Shown: positions 2,331-37,875 of the stretch, piece by piece
Numbering within the stretch: position 1 is the stretch's first letter
How the letters are laid out: each line of letters starts with the position of its first letter
Assembly (NCBI GenBank): GCA_965649765.1
Contig: OZ287755.1
Location: 44,578,001-44,642,000 of the forward strand
Direction of reading: 5' to 3'
Origin: Bispira polyomma
Lineage: Eukaryota
Length of the DNA: 64,000 nt
Position numbers and translations under genes: made by a program
The notes under the pieces: model-generated
Database searches by the model: none
Seen by the model: only the letters and a program-made list of their open reading frames with translations
Told to the model about the DNA's origin: nothing

Positions 2331-3306
2331 TTTGGGGATGTATAGGATTCTGCCAGTACACAAAAAAACAGTCAAGAGTTCTGAAAATATTGACTGTAGC
2401 ATGTCCCAGTTCATCAACCATTTATTCAAATGTAATTTGAGGGAATGAAATCGGTCGGTTGCCCGATTTAAGAGGCGTGGGTCACAGGCAAATCAAAAGG
2501 AGTTTTTTTTTTCTTGGTTGGCAGGCTCTTATATGCCATGTTGAAGCATTTGTAATATTTGTTTGTCAATTCGACGCTCTGTAGTATCGTCATATTGGGG
2601 GTGTATTTATTAGTGTTCATACAAAGAAGTAGTGACTAACTCTGAAATATCTTTGTTAAAAATGTCAGAAGTTTTGCCTGAAAATCTAACAGCCGATCTT
2701 ACAGCTGATCTTTAGCTCAAGGGTTAAATCAGATTTTTTGTAGTTAAAACCAATGTCCTTGGCAAATTTATGAAATTCCCTTGTGGCTGATTATCTTGGC
2801 TGCTTTGTATTATGATTTTGGTGCTTGTATCATAAGTATCGTCTGTCTTTTATTTCAGTAATTTGTGCATTTTGAGATGTTTCACTTGCTCCACCATTGC
2901 ACTGGCTTTTGGTGTGTTGGTTTGTCTTTTATATTGTTTATACATTTCTGTGAAATTTTACCTACGCTCATAGCATCTGTCTTTCGTGTAAGCCTCTGTG
3001 GTCTTAGGTCTTCTTACAAAATATGTACACTGTTATGAGTTGGCACATGTTCAGTTTCTTTAAATTGAAATATTTTGGAGTGTAGCATTTTACAGTTCAT
3101 AGTTTTGTGTATATGGAGACATGTTTGTGAAAACAATTTTACAGATGACACTACTGACAATTCTTTAAAAAAAGTGTTTAACTATATCGTATGTTTTTGG
3201 CACGCCATATTTTTGTTCTCTGTAATTCACTCTATTTGTGTTGACTGACAATTTATGCTGAGAAAATTAAAAATATTATTCATAAATTGTATTTTTATAA
3301 AATACA

Positions 3307-3471
3307 TACTTACCCAGTGAAACTGTGTGCTTACCGGTAGTTCGCCTGCCGGTGACGACCAATCCCTAAGAGAAAAGGGGTTATTTACCGGTCGCCTCCG
3401 ACGAGAGTCGGTCCGCCGGGGACCGGTACATCACGTGACCCTGCGCGAGAAGCTGCGCAAACGACCATTCT
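3307..3471. repeat. DIRS ITR (3' end of element); the terminal extension 3263-3306 lies outside it
   Basis: Reverse complement of 10113-10277; I see one mismatch (3330). Confidence 0.95.
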
Positions 3472-3559
3472 GATTTACTAGAGCCATTTTTGAACCCATC
3501 TATTGACATAACACTACCCTTGGCGTTAACCGCGGGGCAGGTTGGGTGGTACTCTAACC

Positions 3560-3656
3560 GTTTCACTGGGTAAGTATGTATTTTATAAAAATACAATTTA
3601 TGAATAAAATTTTTAATTTTATTGCAATACAATTACTTACCCAGTGAAACTGTGTG
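3560..3656. repeat. DIRS internal complementary region (ICR)
   Basis: 3560-3620 is complementary to the left terminus 3263-3323 (one mismatch at 3275); 3616-3656 is complementary to the right terminus 10255-10295; the two halves share ATTTT. Confidence 0.95.
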
Positions 3657-4284
3657 CTGAATACCATCACCAAGGAGGTGGGTAAACGCCACAGGGAAGC
3701 TGGTAGAACTCCTTTTCTCTGAAATAAACAAAGTTATTAGTATTGATGGTGGTGATGCTGCCTCTTCTTGTCTGATCCTACAAGGAAAGAAGGAATTAGT
3801 CTAGTGCGTAATAATCACTTACCCTAGCCTGCAGCTCTCTGTAGTTGAGATGACCACCTTTTCATCGAGTACCAGAACTTCCACACATTGTAAGACTTTC
3901 TGACCTAAAAGGGTTAAAATACACGCAATAATTAGATACCGTTCTGGAACTAATATTGACAAGTATATGTATACATTTATATGAGAACAGATCGTAATCA
4001 GTTATCCCCCAGAATTACAGTATTAACATACTTATTTTTTGACAACCATGCTTACATGTGTGTTTTAATCAAAAACAGAATGAGTCAAAATTTTCTCTCA
4101 CCATCGATACAGGTATCCTGCTGGCATGTAGTCCTCCCGATCCGGTAGTAACGGATCCGGTTGACCGGTGGGGCACTGGCAAGTGTCACGATCCGGTCGG
4201 CTCCCCCCCCCCCCTGGTTTTCACAAGAGAGTAGCTGGGTCACAGGCACACACACTGAGGCAAATATCACATGATGAGAGTCGT

Positions 4285-7200
4285 TCAGGAAGGTGAAGAA
4301 TCCACAATCTGTTGAGCAGCTACAACAGGACCTAGGTAGAGGTAGTCTTTGTCCGCCCAGGCCAGGTTTTTTAAATAAAAGTCCGTGAACGTGGAATGCG
4401 ACTTCCAATGGCAGGCTGACATAATTTGATCGACCGAAACGCCACCTTGGAAGGCTTTGGAGGCCGCGAAAGCTCTGACGTCATGAGCTTTGACCTGTAG
4501 AAGGTCGAGAGAGTGATCATCAGCGAGAGAGTAACACAACTTCACTGTTTCTTTAATCCATGATGATATGGTTGACGCCTGTATTTCTTTGCTGTGGCCT
4601 TTCTTAAAAGACACAAACAAGAGCTTTCTACCTTTCCTGATGTCGGATACTTTATCCAAGTAGTATCTCAGGGCTCTGACAGGACATAACGATCTGTCTG
4701 TAATTAGGCTTCTGTCTAACGCTGGAGCGAGAGCAGGGATGATCACCGGTGCGATACACTGTGGTCCGTCCCTAGCGAGTTGATTCTTGGCCAAAAAGGC
4801 CGGGGAGGCTGCTAAAGATATTTTCTCCCAGTGGCCCAGATTCCGCATGTACTCGAATATCCAAGCGTGAATTTCGCTCCGACGTTTTCCTGATGCCAAA
4901 GCAAGTAGGAAGGCTGTCTTGTAAGTAAGATGCTTCAGTTCTGCTTTTCGTAACGGTTCAAAAGGAGGACAAGTAAGCTGATGTAGCACAACCGAGAGAT
5001 TCCACTTTGGTAAGGATCTGGCTGCCTTAGGCCTATCTCGATGAAAACTGGTCAACAACCGAGAGATGTCCTGGTTATGACTAATATTCACTGTGGAACC
5101 GAGGGTATCCGCAATAGCCGTCCTGTAGCCTTCTATGGTAGAAGGTCTTAGGTTCTTGTCCGAGTAGAGGTGCATCAAGAAATCTGCTACTTTATTAACA
5201 GGTGGGCATGTGAAGTCCACCTGCTTTTCCTCACACCATCGTTGAAAAACGGTCCACTTTGACTTGTAGACGGATCTTGTAGAGAGCCTCTGAGGTTGAG
5301 CAATCCTTTCTGCCACTGCAGGGGTGAAGCCTTGCTCTTGTAGTCCGGTACTCCTAGACACCAAGCGTGAAGGTTCCGGATGGAACCGAAGGTTCCATGG
5401 TTGTCTGAGTAAATTGTGGCGTGGAGGTAGCAGTAGAGGAACTCGCAGTGACAAGTCCACGAGATCCCAGAACCAGGGCATTCCCGGCCACCCTGGGGCT
5501 ATGAGAAGTATCCTGCACCTGTGGGTGCGTACTTTGTTGATCACCTTGGTGATCAGAGCTGTCGGGGGATAACAGTAAACGTCCAGGTTGTCCCAAGATA
5601 TGTTGAGAGCATCCACTGCCCAGGCTTGCGGATCCGGGAGTGGAGAGACGTATATCGGTAGTTTGTGATTCAAGTTTGTTGCAAACATGTCCACATGTGG
5701 AGTGTACCACTGGCGGCACAGGGTCTTGAAAATCCGAGGGCAGAGCGACCACTCTGTCTGGATGACTTGGTTCTTTCTGGAGAGAGCGTCGGCGATGACG
5801 TTTCGACATCCGGGAATGTGACGCACTCTGAGAGTCACAGTTAACTTGTGACATAATGTTTGTATTCTCCAGACTAGGGCACACATCTCCATTGAGTGTG
5901 TGCCTCCCTGTTTGTTTATGTAGGCTACCACCGATGAGTTGTCGGTTGACAGAAGGACTCTTTGACCGGTGCACTGAACCTTGAAGGCCTGTAGAGCCAG
6001 ATAGACTGCCTTGAGTTCTAGGACATTTATGTGTAGATCTTGTTCGGACACTGACCATCCGCCTCTGGCTGTGTGACAATCCAAGTGAGCGCCCCAACCT
6101 TCGTTTGAAGCGTCTGTAAAGAGCAAGGTATTGTGCTCGAGAGGATGGAGGGAGTCTCCCACCAACACGTTTCTTGGATCCAACCACCATTCGAGGTGAG
6201 CCTTGAGGAGAGGGTCCACTGGAATGAGCTTGTTTAAGGTTTCTGGGAACCTCCAGTGGTTCTTCAGGTGCCATTGTAGAGGTCGCATTTGAAGGCGACC
6301 CCCAGGTACTTGTTTTTCTGTTGACGCAAGGAGGCCGATAAGGGACATCCAGAGTCGAACCGACACCCGAGAGATGAGGAGTATCCGGTTGATCATATCC
6401 TGTAATTTGCGCAACCGGTCTGGTGTAGGTAGTACCAGTCCCCTCTGTAAGTCGAACTGGTACCCGATGAAGGTAAAGTTCTGTGAGGGGATAAGTTCCG
6501 ACTTCTCGTAATTGATGATCCAACCCAAATCTGTGATGAGGGAGATCACGGTCTCTGTGCTGGTTTGACATTGAGCCGCTGAAGGTGCTCTGATAAGCCA
6601 GTCGTCCAAATACTGATGCATCCGAACTCCCAAAGAGAGGGCCATCAGTTTGACTTCCTTGACTAGTAGAGTGAACTCGTGAGGGGCTGTTGCTAGTCCA
6701 AATGGAAGAGCCCTGAACTGGTAGGACTTGCCTCGGTGATGAAACCTGAGGTATTTTTGAGACCGGGGGTGAATCGGGATGTGTAGATAAGCATCCGTAA
6801 GGTCCAGAGAGGTGACCCATTCCCCCTGTTGTAAAGAGGCCCGGATCGACTCCGGGGTCTCCATGCGGAACTTGTGGACCTCGAGGTATTGATTGAGAGT
6901 ACTGAGGTCTATGACCGGTCTCCACCGGTTGCCCGGTTTGGGAACCAGGAAAAGCCGACTGGTGTATCCCAACGAGTTGGTCTTTTGCACCAGTACGACT
7001 GCTTGTTTTGACAGAAGGTCCACCACACAGTTGTGTAAAGCGTTGTCTTTCTGTCCTCCCGTGTATCCGCTTATGATGTATGGGAACCGGGATAGAGGAG
7101 GCTTTCTCCGGAATGGAAGGGAATATCCTAGCCTTATGATATCCAGTTCTCTTTGAATTATTCCTTTCGATGTCCATTCGGGTACAAAATGAAGCAAACG

Positions 7201-7533
7201 CGCCCCAACCCCTGAGGGCGTCTGCTTCGGTAGAGTCTCATTTCGAGGAGCCACCCCGGCCCCGGGGGAAAGGCTTCTTGAAGCCTCCTCCCGATCCTCT
7301 GTCGGATCCATTGCCACCGCCGCCTCCACGGCCACCTCTATACGCGTTGTTTCCCCGTCCCCGGGAAGAACGACCACGTCCACCTTGGTGATAGGGTGAG
7401 GACCTGTTGCCGCGATACGAACCCTTGGACGAGCTACTTTTGTGTTTGTAGTCCCCTGAGGAACCGCGGCTTGTATGATAACGTTTATCATTTTTAATGG
7501 CCTCCTGTGCCCTGGTGACAACGGCCGGGTCAA
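4285..7533 (-). CDS. DIRS pol (RT, RNase H, DNA adenine methyltransferase-like) read in frame into tyrosine recombinase; true start uncertain
   Basis: RT: WRPVIDL, SLDLTDAY, LPFGL, YLDD. RNase H: FTDAS, INVLELKAV, TDN, ADALSR. MT-like: DMFAT...VDAL...YCYPP...LIAPGW. YR: GKRRSEI, LCPVRAL, HDVR, HWKS, FTDFY. Confidence 0.93.
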   Translation of the reverse strand: MTRPLSPGHRRPLKMINVIIQAAVPQGTTNTKVARPRVRIAATGPHPITKVDVVVLPGDGETTRIEVAVEAAVAMDPTEDREEASRSLSPGAGVAPRNETLPKQTPSGVGARLLHFVPEWTSKGIIQRELDIIRLGYSLPFRRKPPLSRFPYIISGYTGGQKDNALHNCVVDLLSKQAVVLVQKTNSLGYTSRLFLVPKPGNRWRPVIDLSTLNQYLEVHKFRMETPESIRASLQQGEWVTSLDLTDAYLHIPIHPRSQKYLRFHHRGKSYQFRALPFGLATAPHEFTLLVKEVKLMALSLGVRMHQYLDDWLIRAPSAAQCQTSTETVISLITDLGWIINYEKSELIPSQNFTFIGYQFDLQRGLVLPTPDRLRKLQDMINRILLISRVSVRLWMSLIGLLASTEKQVPGGRLQMRPLQWHLKNHWRFPETLNKLIPVDPLLKAHLEWWLDPRNVLVGDSLHPLEHNTLLFTDASNEGWGAHLDCHTARGGWSVSEQDLHINVLELKAVYLALQAFKVQCTGQRVLLSTDNSSVVAYINKQGGTHSMEMCALVWRIQTLCHKLTVTLRVRHIPGCRNVIADALSRKNQVIQTEWSLCPRIFKTLCRQWYTPHVDMFATNLNHKLPIYVSPLPDPQAWAVDALNISWDNLDVYCYPPTALITKVINKVRTHRCRILLIAPGWPGMPWFWDLVDLSLRVPLLLPPRHNLLRQPWNLRFHPEPSRLVSRSTGLQEQGFTPAVAERIAQPQRLSTRSVYKSKWTVFQRWCEEKQVDFTCPPVNKVADFLMHLYSDKNLRPSTIEGYRTAIADTLGSTVNISHNQDISRLLTSFHRDRPKAARSLPKWNLSVVLHQLTCPPFEPLRKAELKHLTYKTAFLLALASGKRRSEIHAWIFEYMRNLGHWEKISLAASPAFLAKNQLARDGPQCIAPVIIPALAPALDRSLITDRSLCPVRALRYYLDKVSDIRKGRKLLFVSFKKGHSKEIQASTISSWIKETVKLCYSLADDHSLDLLQVKAHDVRAFAASKAFQGGVSVDQIMSACHWKSHSTFTDFYLKNLAWADKDYLYLGPVVAAQQIVDSSPS
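5354..7177 (-). CDS. 607-aa ORF fully overlapping pol; probably the N-terminal part of the DIRS YR ORF, detached here by a frameshift
   Basis: Stop-free for 1.8 kb in an alternative frame of pol, as is typical of DIRS1 elements; ends about 20 nt after the inferred frameshift. Confidence 0.7.
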   Translation of the reverse strand: MDIERNNSKRTGYHKARIFPSIPEKASSIPVPIHHKRIHGRTERQRFTQLCGGPSVKTSSRTGAKDQLVGIHQSAFPGSQTGQPVETGHRPQYSQSIPRGPQVPHGDPGVDPGLFTTGGMGHLSGPYGCLSTHPDSPPVSKIPQVSSPRQVLPVQGSSIWTSNSPSRVHSTSQGSQTDGPLFGSSDASVFGRLAYQSTFSGSMSNQHRDRDLPHHRFGLDHQLREVGTYPLTELYLHRVPVRLTEGTGTTYTRPVAQITGYDQPDTPHLSGVGSTLDVPYRPPCVNRKTSTWGSPSNATSTMAPEEPLEVPRNLKQAHSSGPSPQGSPRMVVGSKKRVGGRLPPSSRAQYLALYRRFKRRLGRSLGLSHSQRRMVSVRTRSTHKCPRTQGSLSGSTGLQGSVHRSKSPSVNRQLIGGSLHKQTGRHTLNGDVCPSLENTNIMSQVNCDSQSASHSRMSKRHRRRSLQKEPSHPDRVVALPSDFQDPVPPVVHSTCGHVCNKLESQTTDIRLSTPGSASLGSGCSQHILGQPGRLLLSPDSSDHQGDQQSTHPQVQDTSHSPRVAGNALVLGSRGLVTASSSTATSTPQFTQTTMEPSVPSGTFTLGV

Positions 7534-10051
7534 ATAGGTCAGTTGAATGATACGGAGATGACCTGAGGTCGGACTTCAAGTGACCTGGCACAAAAGGGTG
7601 CAGGTTTGTTAACACCGCATCTCTGCGAAAGAGAATGGTGTTCGCCATCATTGTCATAATGTCTGCGTGAAGATGTCCCACGACACGAGACATGCTGATC
7701 ATGACCCTCTGGGCGACAGCTAAGTTTTCGTCCTTAAGGGTCGGGTCTTGCTCTTGGCGGGCCCTTGTGATGGCTATCTCCGCTGCCCTAGAGAAGTGGG
7801 AGTAATGGTTGAGGGCTGAGAGCCACTCCTTCTGTCTACCCTCCCACTGCCGCATTTGCTTTTGCGAGACGTGACAGACCGGAGCCTGTCGAGGATTGTT
7901 TTGCTCAATGTCCCGGAAATTGGGATTGAGAAGCTGTGGTGTAACCGACCACGCAGCGTCTTGGACAGGATAAAATTTCACGTCCGACCTAGGCATTTTG
8001 AGAATTTCTCCTTGCTGAAGGCGCCTAGACTCTCCACCGGTAGGGTGAGCTGTTGTAGCCAGAGTGAGAGCCTGAAATTTTGAAACCAAGTCTAAAGCCG
8101 GGAGCTTGAGAGATGGGGGCAATACGGAATCTTCTGCTGCAGGCTGGGCCCGAAATAATGAAGTGGAAGATTCCTCTTTAGGAGTTTCTTTCGGTTCTGG
8201 AATATCCAGTATTGTCCTAACCGCCTTCAATGTTTCAACATAGGTAGGGAAGTACGTGTACTCATCCCTAGTGGTGGCGTTATCGTCCTCAGAAAAATTC
8301 CGATGGGAACGCGACGAATCCCGAGAGTGTTGTCCCGGTGTAGGAGAATTCTCTGTCTGTACCATCTCCATAGCCCTTTTCTTGGCAGCGATAAACGCTA
8401 CCGCGTGTTCCTCATTTTCCTCTGAGACCTCGCCTGCCTCACGTTCCGGGTACCGTACAGGAGGAGCCCCTAAAGAAGCTGACGGTTTAGCCTTCTGTTT
8501 AGAGGTAGCCGGTCTAGCCGGGACCCCGTCAGCCGAATCGTTGGAAGAGTCCGAAGTCGAAGCGTTTGGGGTCCTCTTCCTATGGCGACTCTTTTTATCC
8601 CGTTTATGTGTCCTCTTGTGCTCTTTCTTGAGCTTACGCTCGTAACGGGCCAAGGTGTCGGGTGACATGTACTCCATCTCCTGATCAGGTTCAGGGGTGG
8701 TTTTGTCCCAAGACGTCTCCGGTTGAGTATCCCTGGGGGTCTTAGTATGATGTAGTCCATACGACCTATCCGGCTGCTCGAACATCGGCTCCTGATAACC
8801 CCTAGAATGAGGTTGCGGTTGCGAGGCTGTCGCCCCGTAAGGGGGCCGTGGCTGCTGAGCCGGAGTGAGGTTGCTACCAGAGGTGAGTCCGGAGACCGAG
8901 GTACCTTCTCCGGTGACCGGAGGTTCCCTATCACGGGTTTGTTGTTTTAGAGAGGAGAGTTCCTTCATGAGAGTCTGAAGAAGGAGATCAGACTTTGCAG
9001 CCTGTTGTTGAAGCAAATTGTCGGTACGCTGCTGTTGCAGGTCCATCTTGCCATGAAGAGAGCACAGTTCCGTGGTAAATTGATTCCTCAAATTATCCAC
9101 GAGCGCACGTGACTGTGTCATCGGTGTAGCCGGGGGGGGAGGCGGTAAAGGTTGAATACCGGCCATGCCCGGTGCCGGACCTAAGCCTGTCACCCTTTCC
9201 AATGGAATCTGGATATCGACCCTCTGAGGGTAAGGAGGCTGAAAACTACTAGTAGACGCCGTGGACGGGGGTTGCGGTTCAACCGATTCATCCAAGAGGA
9301 CATTAGCGTCAAAGTCCGAAACTTCCATAGCTTCAATACCGGCTCCGGCGTCGGTTAAACCGGTAGAACCACCGGACCGGCTAGGCGAGTCGAGTAGAGT
9401 ATCTTCTGGGGATGCCAGAGGTGCCCGTTTTTTGTCCTGCCTTTGTCGGTAGGTGACTCGCAACTTAATCTTGTTTCTTTGCTCCTCCGTGAACGACGCA
9501 CAAAACTTGCAATCCGACGGATTCTTAGCACACGGGTCCTGTCCTTTACCCACCTGCCTGCAGGTAGGACACCATCCGTGGTCGTCCCACGAAGCAAAGA
9601 AATGACCACAACGGCCCTGTTTTTGCCCCGTTTTCGTACCACTAGCCCTAGGTGGCTTGGGAGGAGGAGTGGCTACACCTATGAGAAGAAGGGCAGCACA
9701 GAGCAAAGAAATGACCACAACCGTCAGTATAGCCAGGGGAGGAAGTGCTAAGGAGGTAGACGGTCCCGTGGGCTGGACTCTACCCTCCACCGTACTGAGA
9801 AAACTCAGCCAGACAACGAGCCAGAGAGCCGAGCTCCTGTGTCTCCCCGAGGGTACAAATACCCCCATAAGATGCAACAGACCCGGGAACCGGGCCGCCA
9901 TCTTATATCCCAGGAAGATAAGGCCAGAGCTGAAAGCTCTGCAAAACCCTATCAACCCTATCCAGGAAGGACTAAGTAAGTCCAACATAATCCACAACCA
10001 AAGAGCTAACTCCATGTTGAAAAAGTTTCTTAAAACCTGTGACAGTTCCAA
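7238..10051 (-). CDS. DIRS ORF1 (gag-like); start codon uncertain
   Basis: Cys/His cluster CGH...HGWCPTC...C...CKFC, coiled-coil segment, RRDAVL...LRSSP...LF motif, RGG-rich C-terminus; located upstream of pol. Confidence 0.88.
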   Translation of the reverse strand: MELSQVLRNFFNMELALWLWIMLDLLSPSWIGLIGFCRAFSSGLIFLGYKMAARFPGLLHLMGVFVPSGRHRSSALWLVVWLSFLSTVEGRVQPTGPSTSLALPPLAILTVVVISLLCAALLLIGVATPPPKPPRASGTKTGQKQGRCGHFFASWDDHGWCPTCRQVGKGQDPCAKNPSDCKFCASFTEEQRNKIKLRVTYRQRQDKKRAPLASPEDTLLDSPSRSGGSTGLTDAGAGIEAMEVSDFDANVLLDESVEPQPPSTASTSSFQPPYPQRVDIQIPLERVTGLGPAPGMAGIQPLPPPPPATPMTQSRALVDNLRNQFTTELCSLHGKMDLQQQRTDNLLQQQAAKSDLLLQTLMKELSSLKQQTRDREPPVTGEGTSVSGLTSGSNLTPAQQPRPPYGATASQPQPHSRGYQEPMFEQPDRSYGLHHTKTPRDTQPETSWDKTTPEPDQEMEYMSPDTLARYERKLKKEHKRTHKRDKKSRHRKRTPNASTSDSSNDSADGVPARPATSKQKAKPSASLGAPPVRYPEREAGEVSEENEEHAVAFIAAKKRAMEMVQTENSPTPGQHSRDSSRSHRNFSEDDNATTRDEYTYFPTYVETLKAVRTILDIPEPKETPKEESSTSLFRAQPAAEDSVLPPSLKLPALDLVSKFQALTLATTAHPTGGESRRLQQGEILKMPRSDVKFYPVQDAAWSVTPQLLNPNFRDIEQNNPRQAPVCHVSQKQMRQWEGRQKEWLSALNHYSHFSRAAEIAITRARQEQDPTLKDENLAVAQRVMISMSRVVGHLHADIMTMMANTILFRRDAVLTNLHPFVPGHLKSDLRSSPYHSTDLFDPAVVTRAQEAIKNDKRYHTSRGSSGDYKHKSSSSKGSYRGNRSSPYHQGGRGRSSRGRGNNAYRGGRGGGGGNGSDRGSGGGFKKPFPRGRGGSSK

Positions 10052-10112
10052 AGAAATTCAATTAACAGTTCGTAATCCGAAACACGATGCTTCAAAAATG
10101 GCGACCAGTAAT

Positions 10113-10277
10113 AGAATGGTCGTTTGCGCAGCTTCTCGCGCAGGGTCACGTGATGTACCGGTCCCCGGCGGACCGACTCTCGTCGGAGGCGACCGGTAAA
10201 TAACCCCTTTTCTCTTAGGGATTGGTCGTCACCGGCAGGCGAACTACCGGTAACCACACAGTTTCACTGGGTAAGTA
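10113..10277. repeat. DIRS ITR (5' end of element)
   Basis: Inverted copy of 3307-3471. Confidence 0.95.
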
Positions 10278-10319
10278 ATTGTATTGCAATAAAATCCAAT
10301 TGTCTATTGTGCTTCTTGT

Positions 10320-11044
10320 TCAGTTTATATCTGAGGACCACACACTTTCTATCTCATTGTTCCTTTTCCTCCATCTGGCTTTCATCAGCAATTCAAAATT
10401 TTTAGGGGTTAGGTCTTCATTTATATAGACATTTCTTACATTATGTTTAAACAGTTTCTTTCTGGCACCGTGGATCTCTCTTTTCTTAGCATAGGAGGTG
10501 AAGATGATCTTTGTGAATTTAGAATTGCCGTTTTTCCCTTTTAGAGGAATAATTTGAAGGATATCTGAGCTCACTATATTCACATTTAACATATCTTTGG
10601 CGAAGATAGAAAATTTGTTAATCATGACATCCCTATTTGAAGGGGTTGGGGGTCTTTGTTCCTCACTGCCATTACCATTTACTGTCTTGGGTGTTGTCGC
10701 AGAATTTGAGTGGTCTTTTACCGTTATCGCGAAGGTTTTTAGCTCAATCCGGATACAATAACATTATTGAGCTTGTCTTTCTGCTCAATGTCTTCTGACG
10801 GTGATGACAAACTTTCGATTTGCTCATCTTTCTCCAGTATTTTTTTCTTCAGATCCTGCACATCTATATTCAAATTAGTTATTTTTTCCTGCGTTTCTTT
10901 ATCTTTTCTACATAAATACACCATCTTTTCACATAGAAAAGACAATGACTTCTTAATTACTAAAATGTTTTTACTGACCTCCTCCTTATCATCATCTTCT
11001 TCTTGGAGCATTTGTACAAATAATTCAGATTTATTGTTTTCCAT
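10320..11044 (-). pseudogene. Degraded non-LTR retrotransposon ORF1 (CR1/L2-like)
   Basis: Coiled-coil segment followed by NNVIVSGL and VYINEDLTPKN...LLMKAR...VWS motifs; frameshifted into two ORFs. Confidence 0.7.
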
Positions 11045-12829
11045 TTTTTCCCCTGTATTATTCGAATTGTTATCTTTGTTTTATTATTGGCCATTTTTTC
11101 GTCTTACATACAGTGCACAAAACCTCATCATCTAGACATATGTCTAATGTTACATGTTTTGATGAATCTGCCTTGCAGTCATAACATTTTCTATTATTGA
11201 TCGGCATTTTTGGTGTTTGTTATTGTTTATATCCTTTCATTTAGCTTCCATGCGCAGTGACCTGCGCTGTGTTTGAAAATTTTTTTTTGCATTCAAATTA
11301 AAACAAAACCTCTCTGGTTTTTATAATAAGGATGTTCACTGATGTTTTAAATATCTTTTGCATAATTTTACTGATTATCACGAACTACATAATTTCTTGA
11401 GATTTATTCTTTTTGAGCAATTTCCAAAAAAAGCTCGTCTTGCACACGCATGCACATATATCTAAGCTGGTGTACTTCTCACTGGCCCAGGTCTGCTTGT
11501 AAATGTAACACTTATGACAGACTTGGGCAACAAACTCTTCTTTACCAAACTAGTAGATTATATAACTAGTTTATTTTATAATAAACCTATGCTGTATTTA
11601 TATATCAGCAAAAGCAATATTGCCTCCTGTTTTGTTTGAATAACTCAGCTAAACTACCAAGAGGTCACGCTGTCCTTGACCTTTTAGACAGTCATTGGAG
11701 GTTATGTGGTTTGGGTTCGCACTAAAAGCCAAACCCTGGTTTCACCACAGATATACCCCTCCTAAAAAGGCCACCGTGACAGCTACTAGACTTTACATTA
11801 CTTTACTTAGAATACTTTTAAAGTTTACAAATTTAGTTTATTTTAGCTAATTTCCTTTTAAAGCGTAAATTTTACTTTTGGCATAAGCATTTTCCTTTAT
11901 TGTTACTGAAATATATTTCAATAAATGTAGATGTCCTTTGCTTTAAATTTTCTAAAGATGTCATTACATAACTTCTTTTACTTTATTCTAGACTGTAAGT
12001 TGCATGTTTTCTACACTTACATGATCTACGCCATGATTGAACTGGTGTAATCCTCACTCATCCTGGTTGCCCAGAATACAGTGCCATACATGTTTACTGA
12101 TTAGATGGCACAGTTTCTTACCCCCCTGAAAATAGCCTTTCTATCTGAGCAAGTATAGCTTTTTTACGCCTTCAATTTTACGCTGCTACCATTCTTGCTA
12201 TTACCTCCACCCCATAGCAGGCATTCTAAGAACAGCAATAGTGTGCTGGTAAGGGTAATTCTTGTACTACCTGATCTACTTCGGGGTGTAGTAGTGCACT
12301 TAGTATTAATCCTGTAAATCAAAACCTCTTGAAACTTTTCTTCTTGGTTCGTGCGCTATAGCAATGTCTATGCACTTTATGTTTTTCGCCCTTCTCCCTT
12401 TATTATATCCGTCATTTCTGCTGAACACATGTCACTTGCGTCTTGCGAGTTATTAAGGTCTTGACAGTTGACAACTATCACATTGGACCACAACTGTTTT
12501 GTGACACAAAGGGTAGGAAGGTCTTGCAATATAGACTTGATGCTTGACAAATGGGGCTTGGGATGTCAGTAGGTCGGTCTAAGTACCCTCGGATATCACC
12601 TGTGTCTCCATAACAGTCACAGGAAGCAAGGGCTCTAGAGTAGTATTCATAAGTGCCGTTGCATTTCGGTGGTGTTGCCTACAGATGGAAGGGTAAAATT
12701 GAGATTCTAGCTGTCCATTAATAAGGCATGGATGACTGTGGAAGACCTGGTTGCAGTACCAGTACGTGCAGCAACTACTGGCTTTGAAGATTTATCACTG
12801 CAAAACAAAATGAATGCGTTGTTTCTTTT

Positions 12830-36974: not shown

Positions 36975-37875
36975 GACGCAGTCCTGCCGGAACTGAGCTG
37001 GACTCATTTTCCTGGTTAGTATGGGTTGGTTGTCCTTGTTGGCGACGCCTAGCATCGCACTTTGCTTGGGTGTACCCCACCTTTTTACAGAAACTGCATA
37101 TCGGCTTACCGTCAATTGTCCACTGATGCTGGAAAGCCCCTGCAGATTTCTGCGGTCGTGCAACTGCACATTATCCCATAGGCCATCCGATAGCCAATAC
37201 TTCATTAGATTTTTCACGAAGCCCTGCCAGATGTTCAATAATCTCTTTACTTTCTGGATTGAACCTCGACTTAACAAATTCACATCAATAGGTTTGTCAC
37301 GTCTACAGAAACTAAAAGCACAATTTGCCTGTTGCTCTTGACTTCCAATGGCCTGAGCCTGCGCAAATGTCTGAGGTCTATTCCCAATCAGTTTTCGTGC
37401 CATGGAGTCATCTGTGACCCCATCTGTCGAAGTATCTATCAAGCTACCTGCACAAGGGAGTGGCCAAAATTTTGTGCTGGATGGGCATCTTCTGCCAGTG
37501 CTAATATTCGTTCGCTGAAACTTTGTAACACTTTTATTTGTTGGTCCCTCCTGTAGGCTGTCCTTTGTCACTTTAATTTCTTGGTCCCTCCTGTAGCCTG
37601 TCCTTTGTCACTTAATATTTTTGGTCCCCCCTGTAGCCTGTCCTTTGTCTCAGATCAACTGTCCCTCAGCAAAACAGCCGCACCACTTCACTGTCTTTTG
37701 TACTACACACACACCACTTTTAGGTTGTTCCCAGCAAAACCCAGTTCCAAACACCACTGAAATGTCCATTGCAGCACCCACACACAACTGAATTGACCTC
37801 TACAGCTCATATACAGCAACAAGTTTGTGCTCTCAGTTGTTGAACTCTTTTTAAACAGCCACAGCAACAAGGTTG
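36975..37875 (-). pseudogene. LTR-retrotransposon gag-like relic, copy 2 (tandem duplicate)
   Basis: Colinear with 35567-36783. Confidence 0.65.

Follow-up and report, generated by a model that had tools for sequence, protein, structure and literature searches.

The window, a 64,000-nucleotide stretch of the Bispira polyomma genome (assembly GCA_965649765.1, contig OZ287755.1, positions 44,578,001 to 44,642,000), holds a full-length copy of a DIRS1-like retrotransposon. In this copy the pol region, with its reverse transcriptase (RT), RNase H (RH) and methyltransferase-like (MT) domains, runs in a single open frame into the tyrosine recombinase (YR), and the two are joined where the copy is 14 nt shorter than its siblings. 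The features of the element are collected in Table 1.

Table 1. Features of the DIRS1-like copy and of the frames around the pol–YR junction (positions in the window).
Feature	Position	Strand	Basis or remark
DIRS1-like retrotransposon copy, full length (~7.03 kb)	3263..10294	-	alignable span against 20 siblings; flanks unrelated
Left inverted terminal repeat (ITR)	10113..10292	-	180 nt, 96% complementary to 3292-3471
Right ITR	3292..3471	-	8 mismatches against left ITR
Right extension (rE), beyond right ITR	3263..3291	-	complementary to ICR only: arms 3263-3335 / 3548-3620
Internal complementary region (ICR)	3548..3656	-	pairs with both ends: 3548-3620 to 3263-3335, 3603-3656 to 10255-10308
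gag-like ORF1, 939 codons, TGA end	7238..10057	-	gag identity by position
Fused RT-RNaseH-MT(truncated)-YR frame, 1096 codons	4285..7575	-	open frame and Pfam matches
Reverse transcriptase core (YLDD)	6454..6945	-	PF00078 (RVT_1), aa 211-374, E 8e-21
RNase H, Pfam-matched part	5908..6135	-	PF17917, aa 481-556, E 3e-4, under curated cut-off
Adenine-methyltransferase-like domain, ending before its last predicted strand	5377..5769	-	sibling-domain model and fold matches
Junction, 14 nt fewer than siblings, 2-nt microhomology	5374..5378	-	locus alignments
Orphaned pol tail, LHAWCLG at 5352-5372, out of the RT frame	5187..5375	-	frame reading
Overlapping YR-frame ORF, 627 codons long (988 in siblings), severed from the recombinase domain	5354..7237	-	
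Tyrosine recombinase region with R, HxxR and Y motifs	4285..5373	-	PF00589 (Phage_integrase), aa 966-1069, E 1e-4, and PF02899, aa 797-825, both under cut-off

The element shows the ITRs, the ICR pairing with both ends and the right extension of DIRS1-like elements. It further has a pol with RT, RNase H and MT domains, the last truncated in the window copy, and a 3′ recombinase recognized by its motifs together with a sub-threshold PF00589 match (E 1e-4). A YR ORF separate from pol, likewise expected of this group, is present in the family and is broken in the window copy by the deletion. The split direct repeats of Ngaro and PAT elements are absent, the direct repeats found being short and derived from the ITRs and the ICR. 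ORF1 would be gag judging by its position, and a Pfam search with it gave no match. The termini as printed are T-rich, and no target-site duplication was noticed. ITRs, ICR, right extension and gag are also described in PMC3266345 and PMC9210276, as are an RT-RH-MT pol, a 3′ YR in a long overlapping frame and T-rich termini. Whereas DIRS1-like elements keep pol and YR apart, the window copy alone has them joined by a deletion, and at ~7.0 kb its family is longer than the 3974–6283 bp given for elements in PMC3266345. The element is a new member of the known DIRS1-like superfamily, and the copy belongs to a large, young family. In other respects this copy is in good shape, with gag and the fused frame open and ITRs and ICR present.

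Around the junction, our analysis bore out the frame reading of the original prediction. Pol does run straight into YR: the 1096-codon frame, which carries the RT, RNase H and recombinase matches, reads ...WNLRFHPEPSRLVSRSTGLQEQGF... over the junction, and its translation spanning the site is FHPEPSRLVSRSTGLQEQGF. The adjacent frame has NLHAWCLG at 5352-5375 and continues to a stop at 5187, and the overlapping ORF of 607 codons from its first ATG (627 stop to stop, the first Met in a sibling being codon 21) ends at a stop at 5354-5356, about 20 nt beyond the junction. A single 3n+2 deletion with a short microhomology (2 nt exact) explains all three of these frame oddities. Of the two one-step shifts that had been proposed, this one stood, as a deletion of 14 nt, and the 1-nt insertion fell, with all 29 other fetched loci carrying 14 extra bases at ~5376. 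LHAW, which had been taken for the normal end of pol, is not its end, for pol in the siblings goes 57 residues further, to 800 codons.

We then asked how widely the short form occurs. A 301-nt junction query returned 301 candidates, and among the best 40, which were scored, the 39 besides the window span 315 nt. The exact 25-nt junction matches once in the 1.035-Gb assembly, as does a 22-nt junction with up to two mismatches. A gapped anchor pattern gave 126 matches: the 100 listed comprise 98 of the long form, one that is two bases longer and the window itself, and the other 26 are covered by the exact and two-mismatch junction searches. The 14 nt are present in all 20 full-length siblings. 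A query with a gag stretch yielded 12 relatives at at least 92% before a drop to 84% (best 40 of 149 candidates scored), and all 12 belong to the 20 full copies fetched and have the long form. In a tree of 21 copies, the window copy forms a leaf, with L037 and L032 as neighbors at a distance of 1.1%. Given the single junction match, the long-form relatives and the leaf position in the tree, the deletion is derived and private in the assembly. Thus, the family-wide junction comparison, by which a propagated new DIRS architecture was to be told from a private mutation, came out on the side of the latter, with one junction in the assembly.

Errors in long reads are mostly 1–2-nt indels in homopolymers. 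An error of assembly or polishing at a locus that is truly of the long form would account for a junction that is unique in the assembly. We looked at contigs from four sequencing runs over 5300-5450 (36, 15, 10 and 0 records). Three contigs of run X1 have the long form and none of 24 of the 61 pieces bridges the junction, though contigs cannot demonstrate absence of the short form, and at fixed letters these runs do not agree with the window. Against an error, the loss is a clean 14 nt with a microhomology and no homopolymer, it resembles the private deletions of 5–43 nt in the siblings, and the surrounding 301 nt have no mismatches to the nearest sibling. Among the window copy and 19 siblings we counted 24 distinct deletions of at least 5 nt, some of them alignment variants of one clade difference, and 9 have a microhomology of at least 2 nt. 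Since a loss of 14 nt is unlike the typical homopolymer errors, an artifact is the less fitting account, and we regard it as improbable. The deletion is hence treated below as a real one.

The deletion removes the LHAWxL motif from the MT domain. With the RH-MT stretch of a sibling as query, 13,442 cluster representatives were recovered at E ≤ 0.001, the best 150 of which were examined. Among the homologues aligned at each position, L740 is conserved in 101/103, H741 in 98/104, W743 in 92/100 and L745 in 87/90, so that L-H-x-W-x-L equals the DxFA and YxxPP motifs in conservation. A second, diverged family in the genome retains FLNLHVWHL despite synonymous changes and yet differs in its YR frame, which argues that the constraint acts on the pol protein. 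In a structural model of the sibling MT domain built from 106 sequences (pLDDT 92.7), the motif forms the last strand (residues 138-144); an earlier model from 32 similar sequences reached a pLDDT of 46 and was set aside. The sibling model (L038:5224-5697) matches PCIF1/CAPAM at E 6.5e-6 (6irx: Z 11.3, rmsd 3.4, 148 aligned) and T4 Dam (1q0s: Z 8.4, rmsd 3.0, 110 aligned), and both alignments extend through the LHAWxL strand. The sibling domain thus shares the fold of these N6-adenine methyltransferases; unlike them, the fused protein is without the last predicted strand. In the DIRS methyltransferase, LHAWxL likely serves as a structural strand and does more than mark the end of an ORF. It may correspond to core strand seven of the class I fold. 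Its loss would be expected to unfold or destabilize the domain. The claim that all catalytic motifs remain is thus right for the motifs it named and fails for the MT domain, whose conserved strand is gone, so that not every domain of the fused protein is complete. Loss of the MT need not be fatal, since heterologous tests of the DIRS MT were negative in bioRxiv 10.64898/2026.05.21.726589.

Several smaller observations touch this domain. In structure it matches the RNA cap adenosine methyltransferase PCIF1 best and T4 Dam less well, a likeness of fold that gives no substrate. Pfam alone leaves the MT uncalled, returning just PCIF1_WW at E 0.1–0.2, and in the Atlas Dam is annotated in 12% of the members of one cluster. 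A splice acceptor at the site was considered and rejected: the AG that follows LHAW is absent at the same place in the second family (3 of the 29 printed loci, with 30 scanned), where the motif is kept with synonymous changes. This rejection covers the junction site only.

The siblings show the layout from which the window copy departed. Their gag ends in a TGA, after which the YR frame runs in the same phase for 988 codons, overlapped by a pol of at most 800 codons. The second family has the same layout, with pol (774 codons) and YR (985 codons) in separate frames. The common phase of gag and the long YR frame, with a single TGA between them (window 7238-7240), recurs in 21/21 aligned copies and in the second family, and YR could be expressed via read-through or from its own ATG. 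Fixed differences between two subfamilies are mostly synonymous in gag (36 nonsynonymous to 141 synonymous) and YR (3:16), which indicates that purifying selection has acted on this lineage in the two-frame state. The overlap frame (window 5354-7237) differs between the subfamilies by 51 nonsynonymous and 6 synonymous changes and is still open, as if retained for translation rather than for its sequence.

The window copy itself has 26 private substitutions, of which those in gag, pol and YR together divide into 11 nonsynonymous and 11 synonymous changes. The nonsynonymous share is below the neutral 73.5% (p = 0.016) and no different from that of 12 siblings (163:116, p = 0.50). Because the ratio matches that of the siblings, the private substitutions show no decay. 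Part of the length of the terminal branches was likely accumulated in active parents outside the sample, and for this reason the test is uninformative on the window copy.

Since pol and YR overlap in different frames over ~2.06 kb, an indel there needs only the right phase to fuse them, and 6 independent indels of the fusing phase were found within the overlap among 19 siblings. With a target of 100–200 nt (from the MT core to the start of YR), 126–301 copies and 20–40% of these otherwise open, we expect 0.4–3.7 near-complete fusions per genome, a rough figure, as the 20 copies were those that scored highest and 301 counts candidates. An open fused frame is thus not beyond chance, at about one per genome. 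Other fusions are indeed present. In L125 (G000:C4:18570300-18578900), a deletion across the end of gag has made a gag-pol frame of 1488 codons, another chance fusion. Two further copies, L036 and L041 (G000:C13), have an RT-YR frame of 1144 codons. Their loci are separated by 1.2 Mb and have unrelated flanks; the copies differ by 0.47% and have 9 exclusive substitutions in common along their length. Between RT and RNase H, both carry an insert of 130 nt (~4677-4806 of each locus) with a 13-nt target duplication; it reads open and brings RT into the YR frame, so that RH and MT fall out of frame. In a DIRS context this insert was seen only in these two copies among the best 40 scored matches. 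The insert represents one end of a high-copy repeat, likely a truncated LINE, that varies at its other end.

By the account in PMC7192593, the RT of DIRS-1 works in trans, and such action likely explains the L036/L041 pair. Two independent insertions thus have in common an RT-YR fusion with RH and MT out of frame and, with an RT that acts in trans, a common junction is no proof of a working fusion. The original prediction had held that a junction found in several independent insertions would show a transposing fusion; the L036/L041 pair, although its fusion is not equivalent to that of the window, makes this a weaker test than claimed. The same pair, a frame-broken family copy at two sites, opens another origin for the window deletion: inheritance from an unsampled parent moved in trans, with copies in other individuals and a fusion that does not function. 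The selected-looking substitutions on the branch to the window copy agree with this account. However, the junction occurs once in the assembly, and a haploid assembly would often reveal a second copy of a mobile parent. We consider this origin the least probable of those weighed here, and a deletion arisen in this copy is preferred.

Fusions of pol and YR are also found in protein databases. An MT-YR query, which itself favors chimeras, matched 1683 proteins, and 116 of the best 120 switch from the pol to the YR frame. Their switch points range from pol residue 648 to 797 and fall in 39 three-residue bins; 57 of the 116 stay colinear to within 6 residues, and just 2 are missing 15 or more. Such scattered and mostly colinear switches suggest plain frameshifts in assemblies, whether errors or mutations. 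The chimeras are ENA records, mostly in single-member clusters. With a search unbiased toward YR, 18 of the best 150 MT homologues had a YR part, and all 7 chimeras looked up among the MT homologues were singletons, two of them gene models of Mytilus edulis. Database chimeras were accordingly rejected as support for a natural fused family, given their scattered switch points and the singletons. The main loose end in favor of a propagated fusion is one cluster in which 6 of 7 members (P0101, P0150-P0154) switch at about pol residue 781, a common switch seen in proteins, with its DNA context unread.

Comparison with known systems bears on whether the fused frame could work. Long pol/YR overlaps occur in half of the 28 elements treated in PMC3266345. 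According to PMC3783388 and PMC6681497, YR may share the RT-RH frame in Ngaro elements and two Bodo saltans TATE copies have a single ORF, so that both are like the window copy in having RT and YR in one reading frame. In contrast to it, Ngaro and TATE have split direct repeats and no MT, and the window join is a lesion of a single copy rather than a family trait. In Ty3/Gypsy and the DAM-carrying LTR elements, RT, RNase H, a DAM-like domain and the integrating enzyme may share a polyprotein, to go by bioRxiv 10.64898/2026.05.21.726589; unlike the window element with its tyrosine recombinase, these have a DDE integrase and LTRs. The same text places DAM and the DIRS tyrosine integrase typically on separate ORFs. 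No DIRS1-like family with one RT-RH-MT-YR ORF was found in the openly accessible papers searched.

These precedents for an in-frame YR (PMC3783388, PMC6681497), the intact termini, the presence of every named catalytic motif in one open frame and the synonymous bias of the branch substitutions would suit a functional single-ORF variant, in which an RT-RH-MT-YR polyprotein works like the pol-integrase of LTR elements and founds a rare lineage. On the other side stand the absence of a second copy from the assembly, the loss of the conserved last MT strand and the same synonymous bias in the unfused siblings. A Pfam search of the fused frame likewise revealed no protease domain that could cut a polyprotein, in a group that PMC3783388 describes as without one, and database chimeras switch anywhere between pol residues 648 and 797. 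We thus view a working variant as very unlikely. A broader form of the idea is equally doubtful, namely that the overlap layout constantly yields pol–YR fusions and that the one in the window, or that of L036/L041, is a working polyprotein able to found a single-ORF lineage. If true, this would suggest how some Ngaro and TATE elements came by their in-frame layouts.

The 14-nt deletion, found in this copy only, is instead very probably a private, unselected mutation in a damaged copy without descendants; the fusion is likely an ordinary private deletion and not a new design. It moves the pol frame into the overlapping recombinase frame, and would have arisen at or after the insertion of the copy, by slippage or end-joining at the 2-nt microhomology. 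The MT domain would be destabilized. With the long overlap frame severed, and with it the usual access to YR, YR could be made only as the tail of pol, and any movement of this copy would presumably rely on proteins supplied by its siblings.

As it stands, one damaged DIRS1-like copy is of little consequence. It does caution that RT-MT-YR fusions in databases warrant no claim of a DIRS architecture without several copies with a common junction, and even common junctions can spread in trans. Were a fused lineage active, its YR would need no separate route of expression, which would bear on the origin of single-ORF YR retrotransposons.

Two other sites in the window, both on the reverse strand, carry ORFs. 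Beside the element, at 10320-11080, lie two adjoining ORFs with no significant Pfam match; the first is coiled-coil-like, and the second has a motif reminiscent of LINE ORF1 proteins. Farther off, at 35500-37607, two similar ORFs of 216 and 235 codons lie 1.4 kb apart and probably go back to a decayed element that was duplicated locally.
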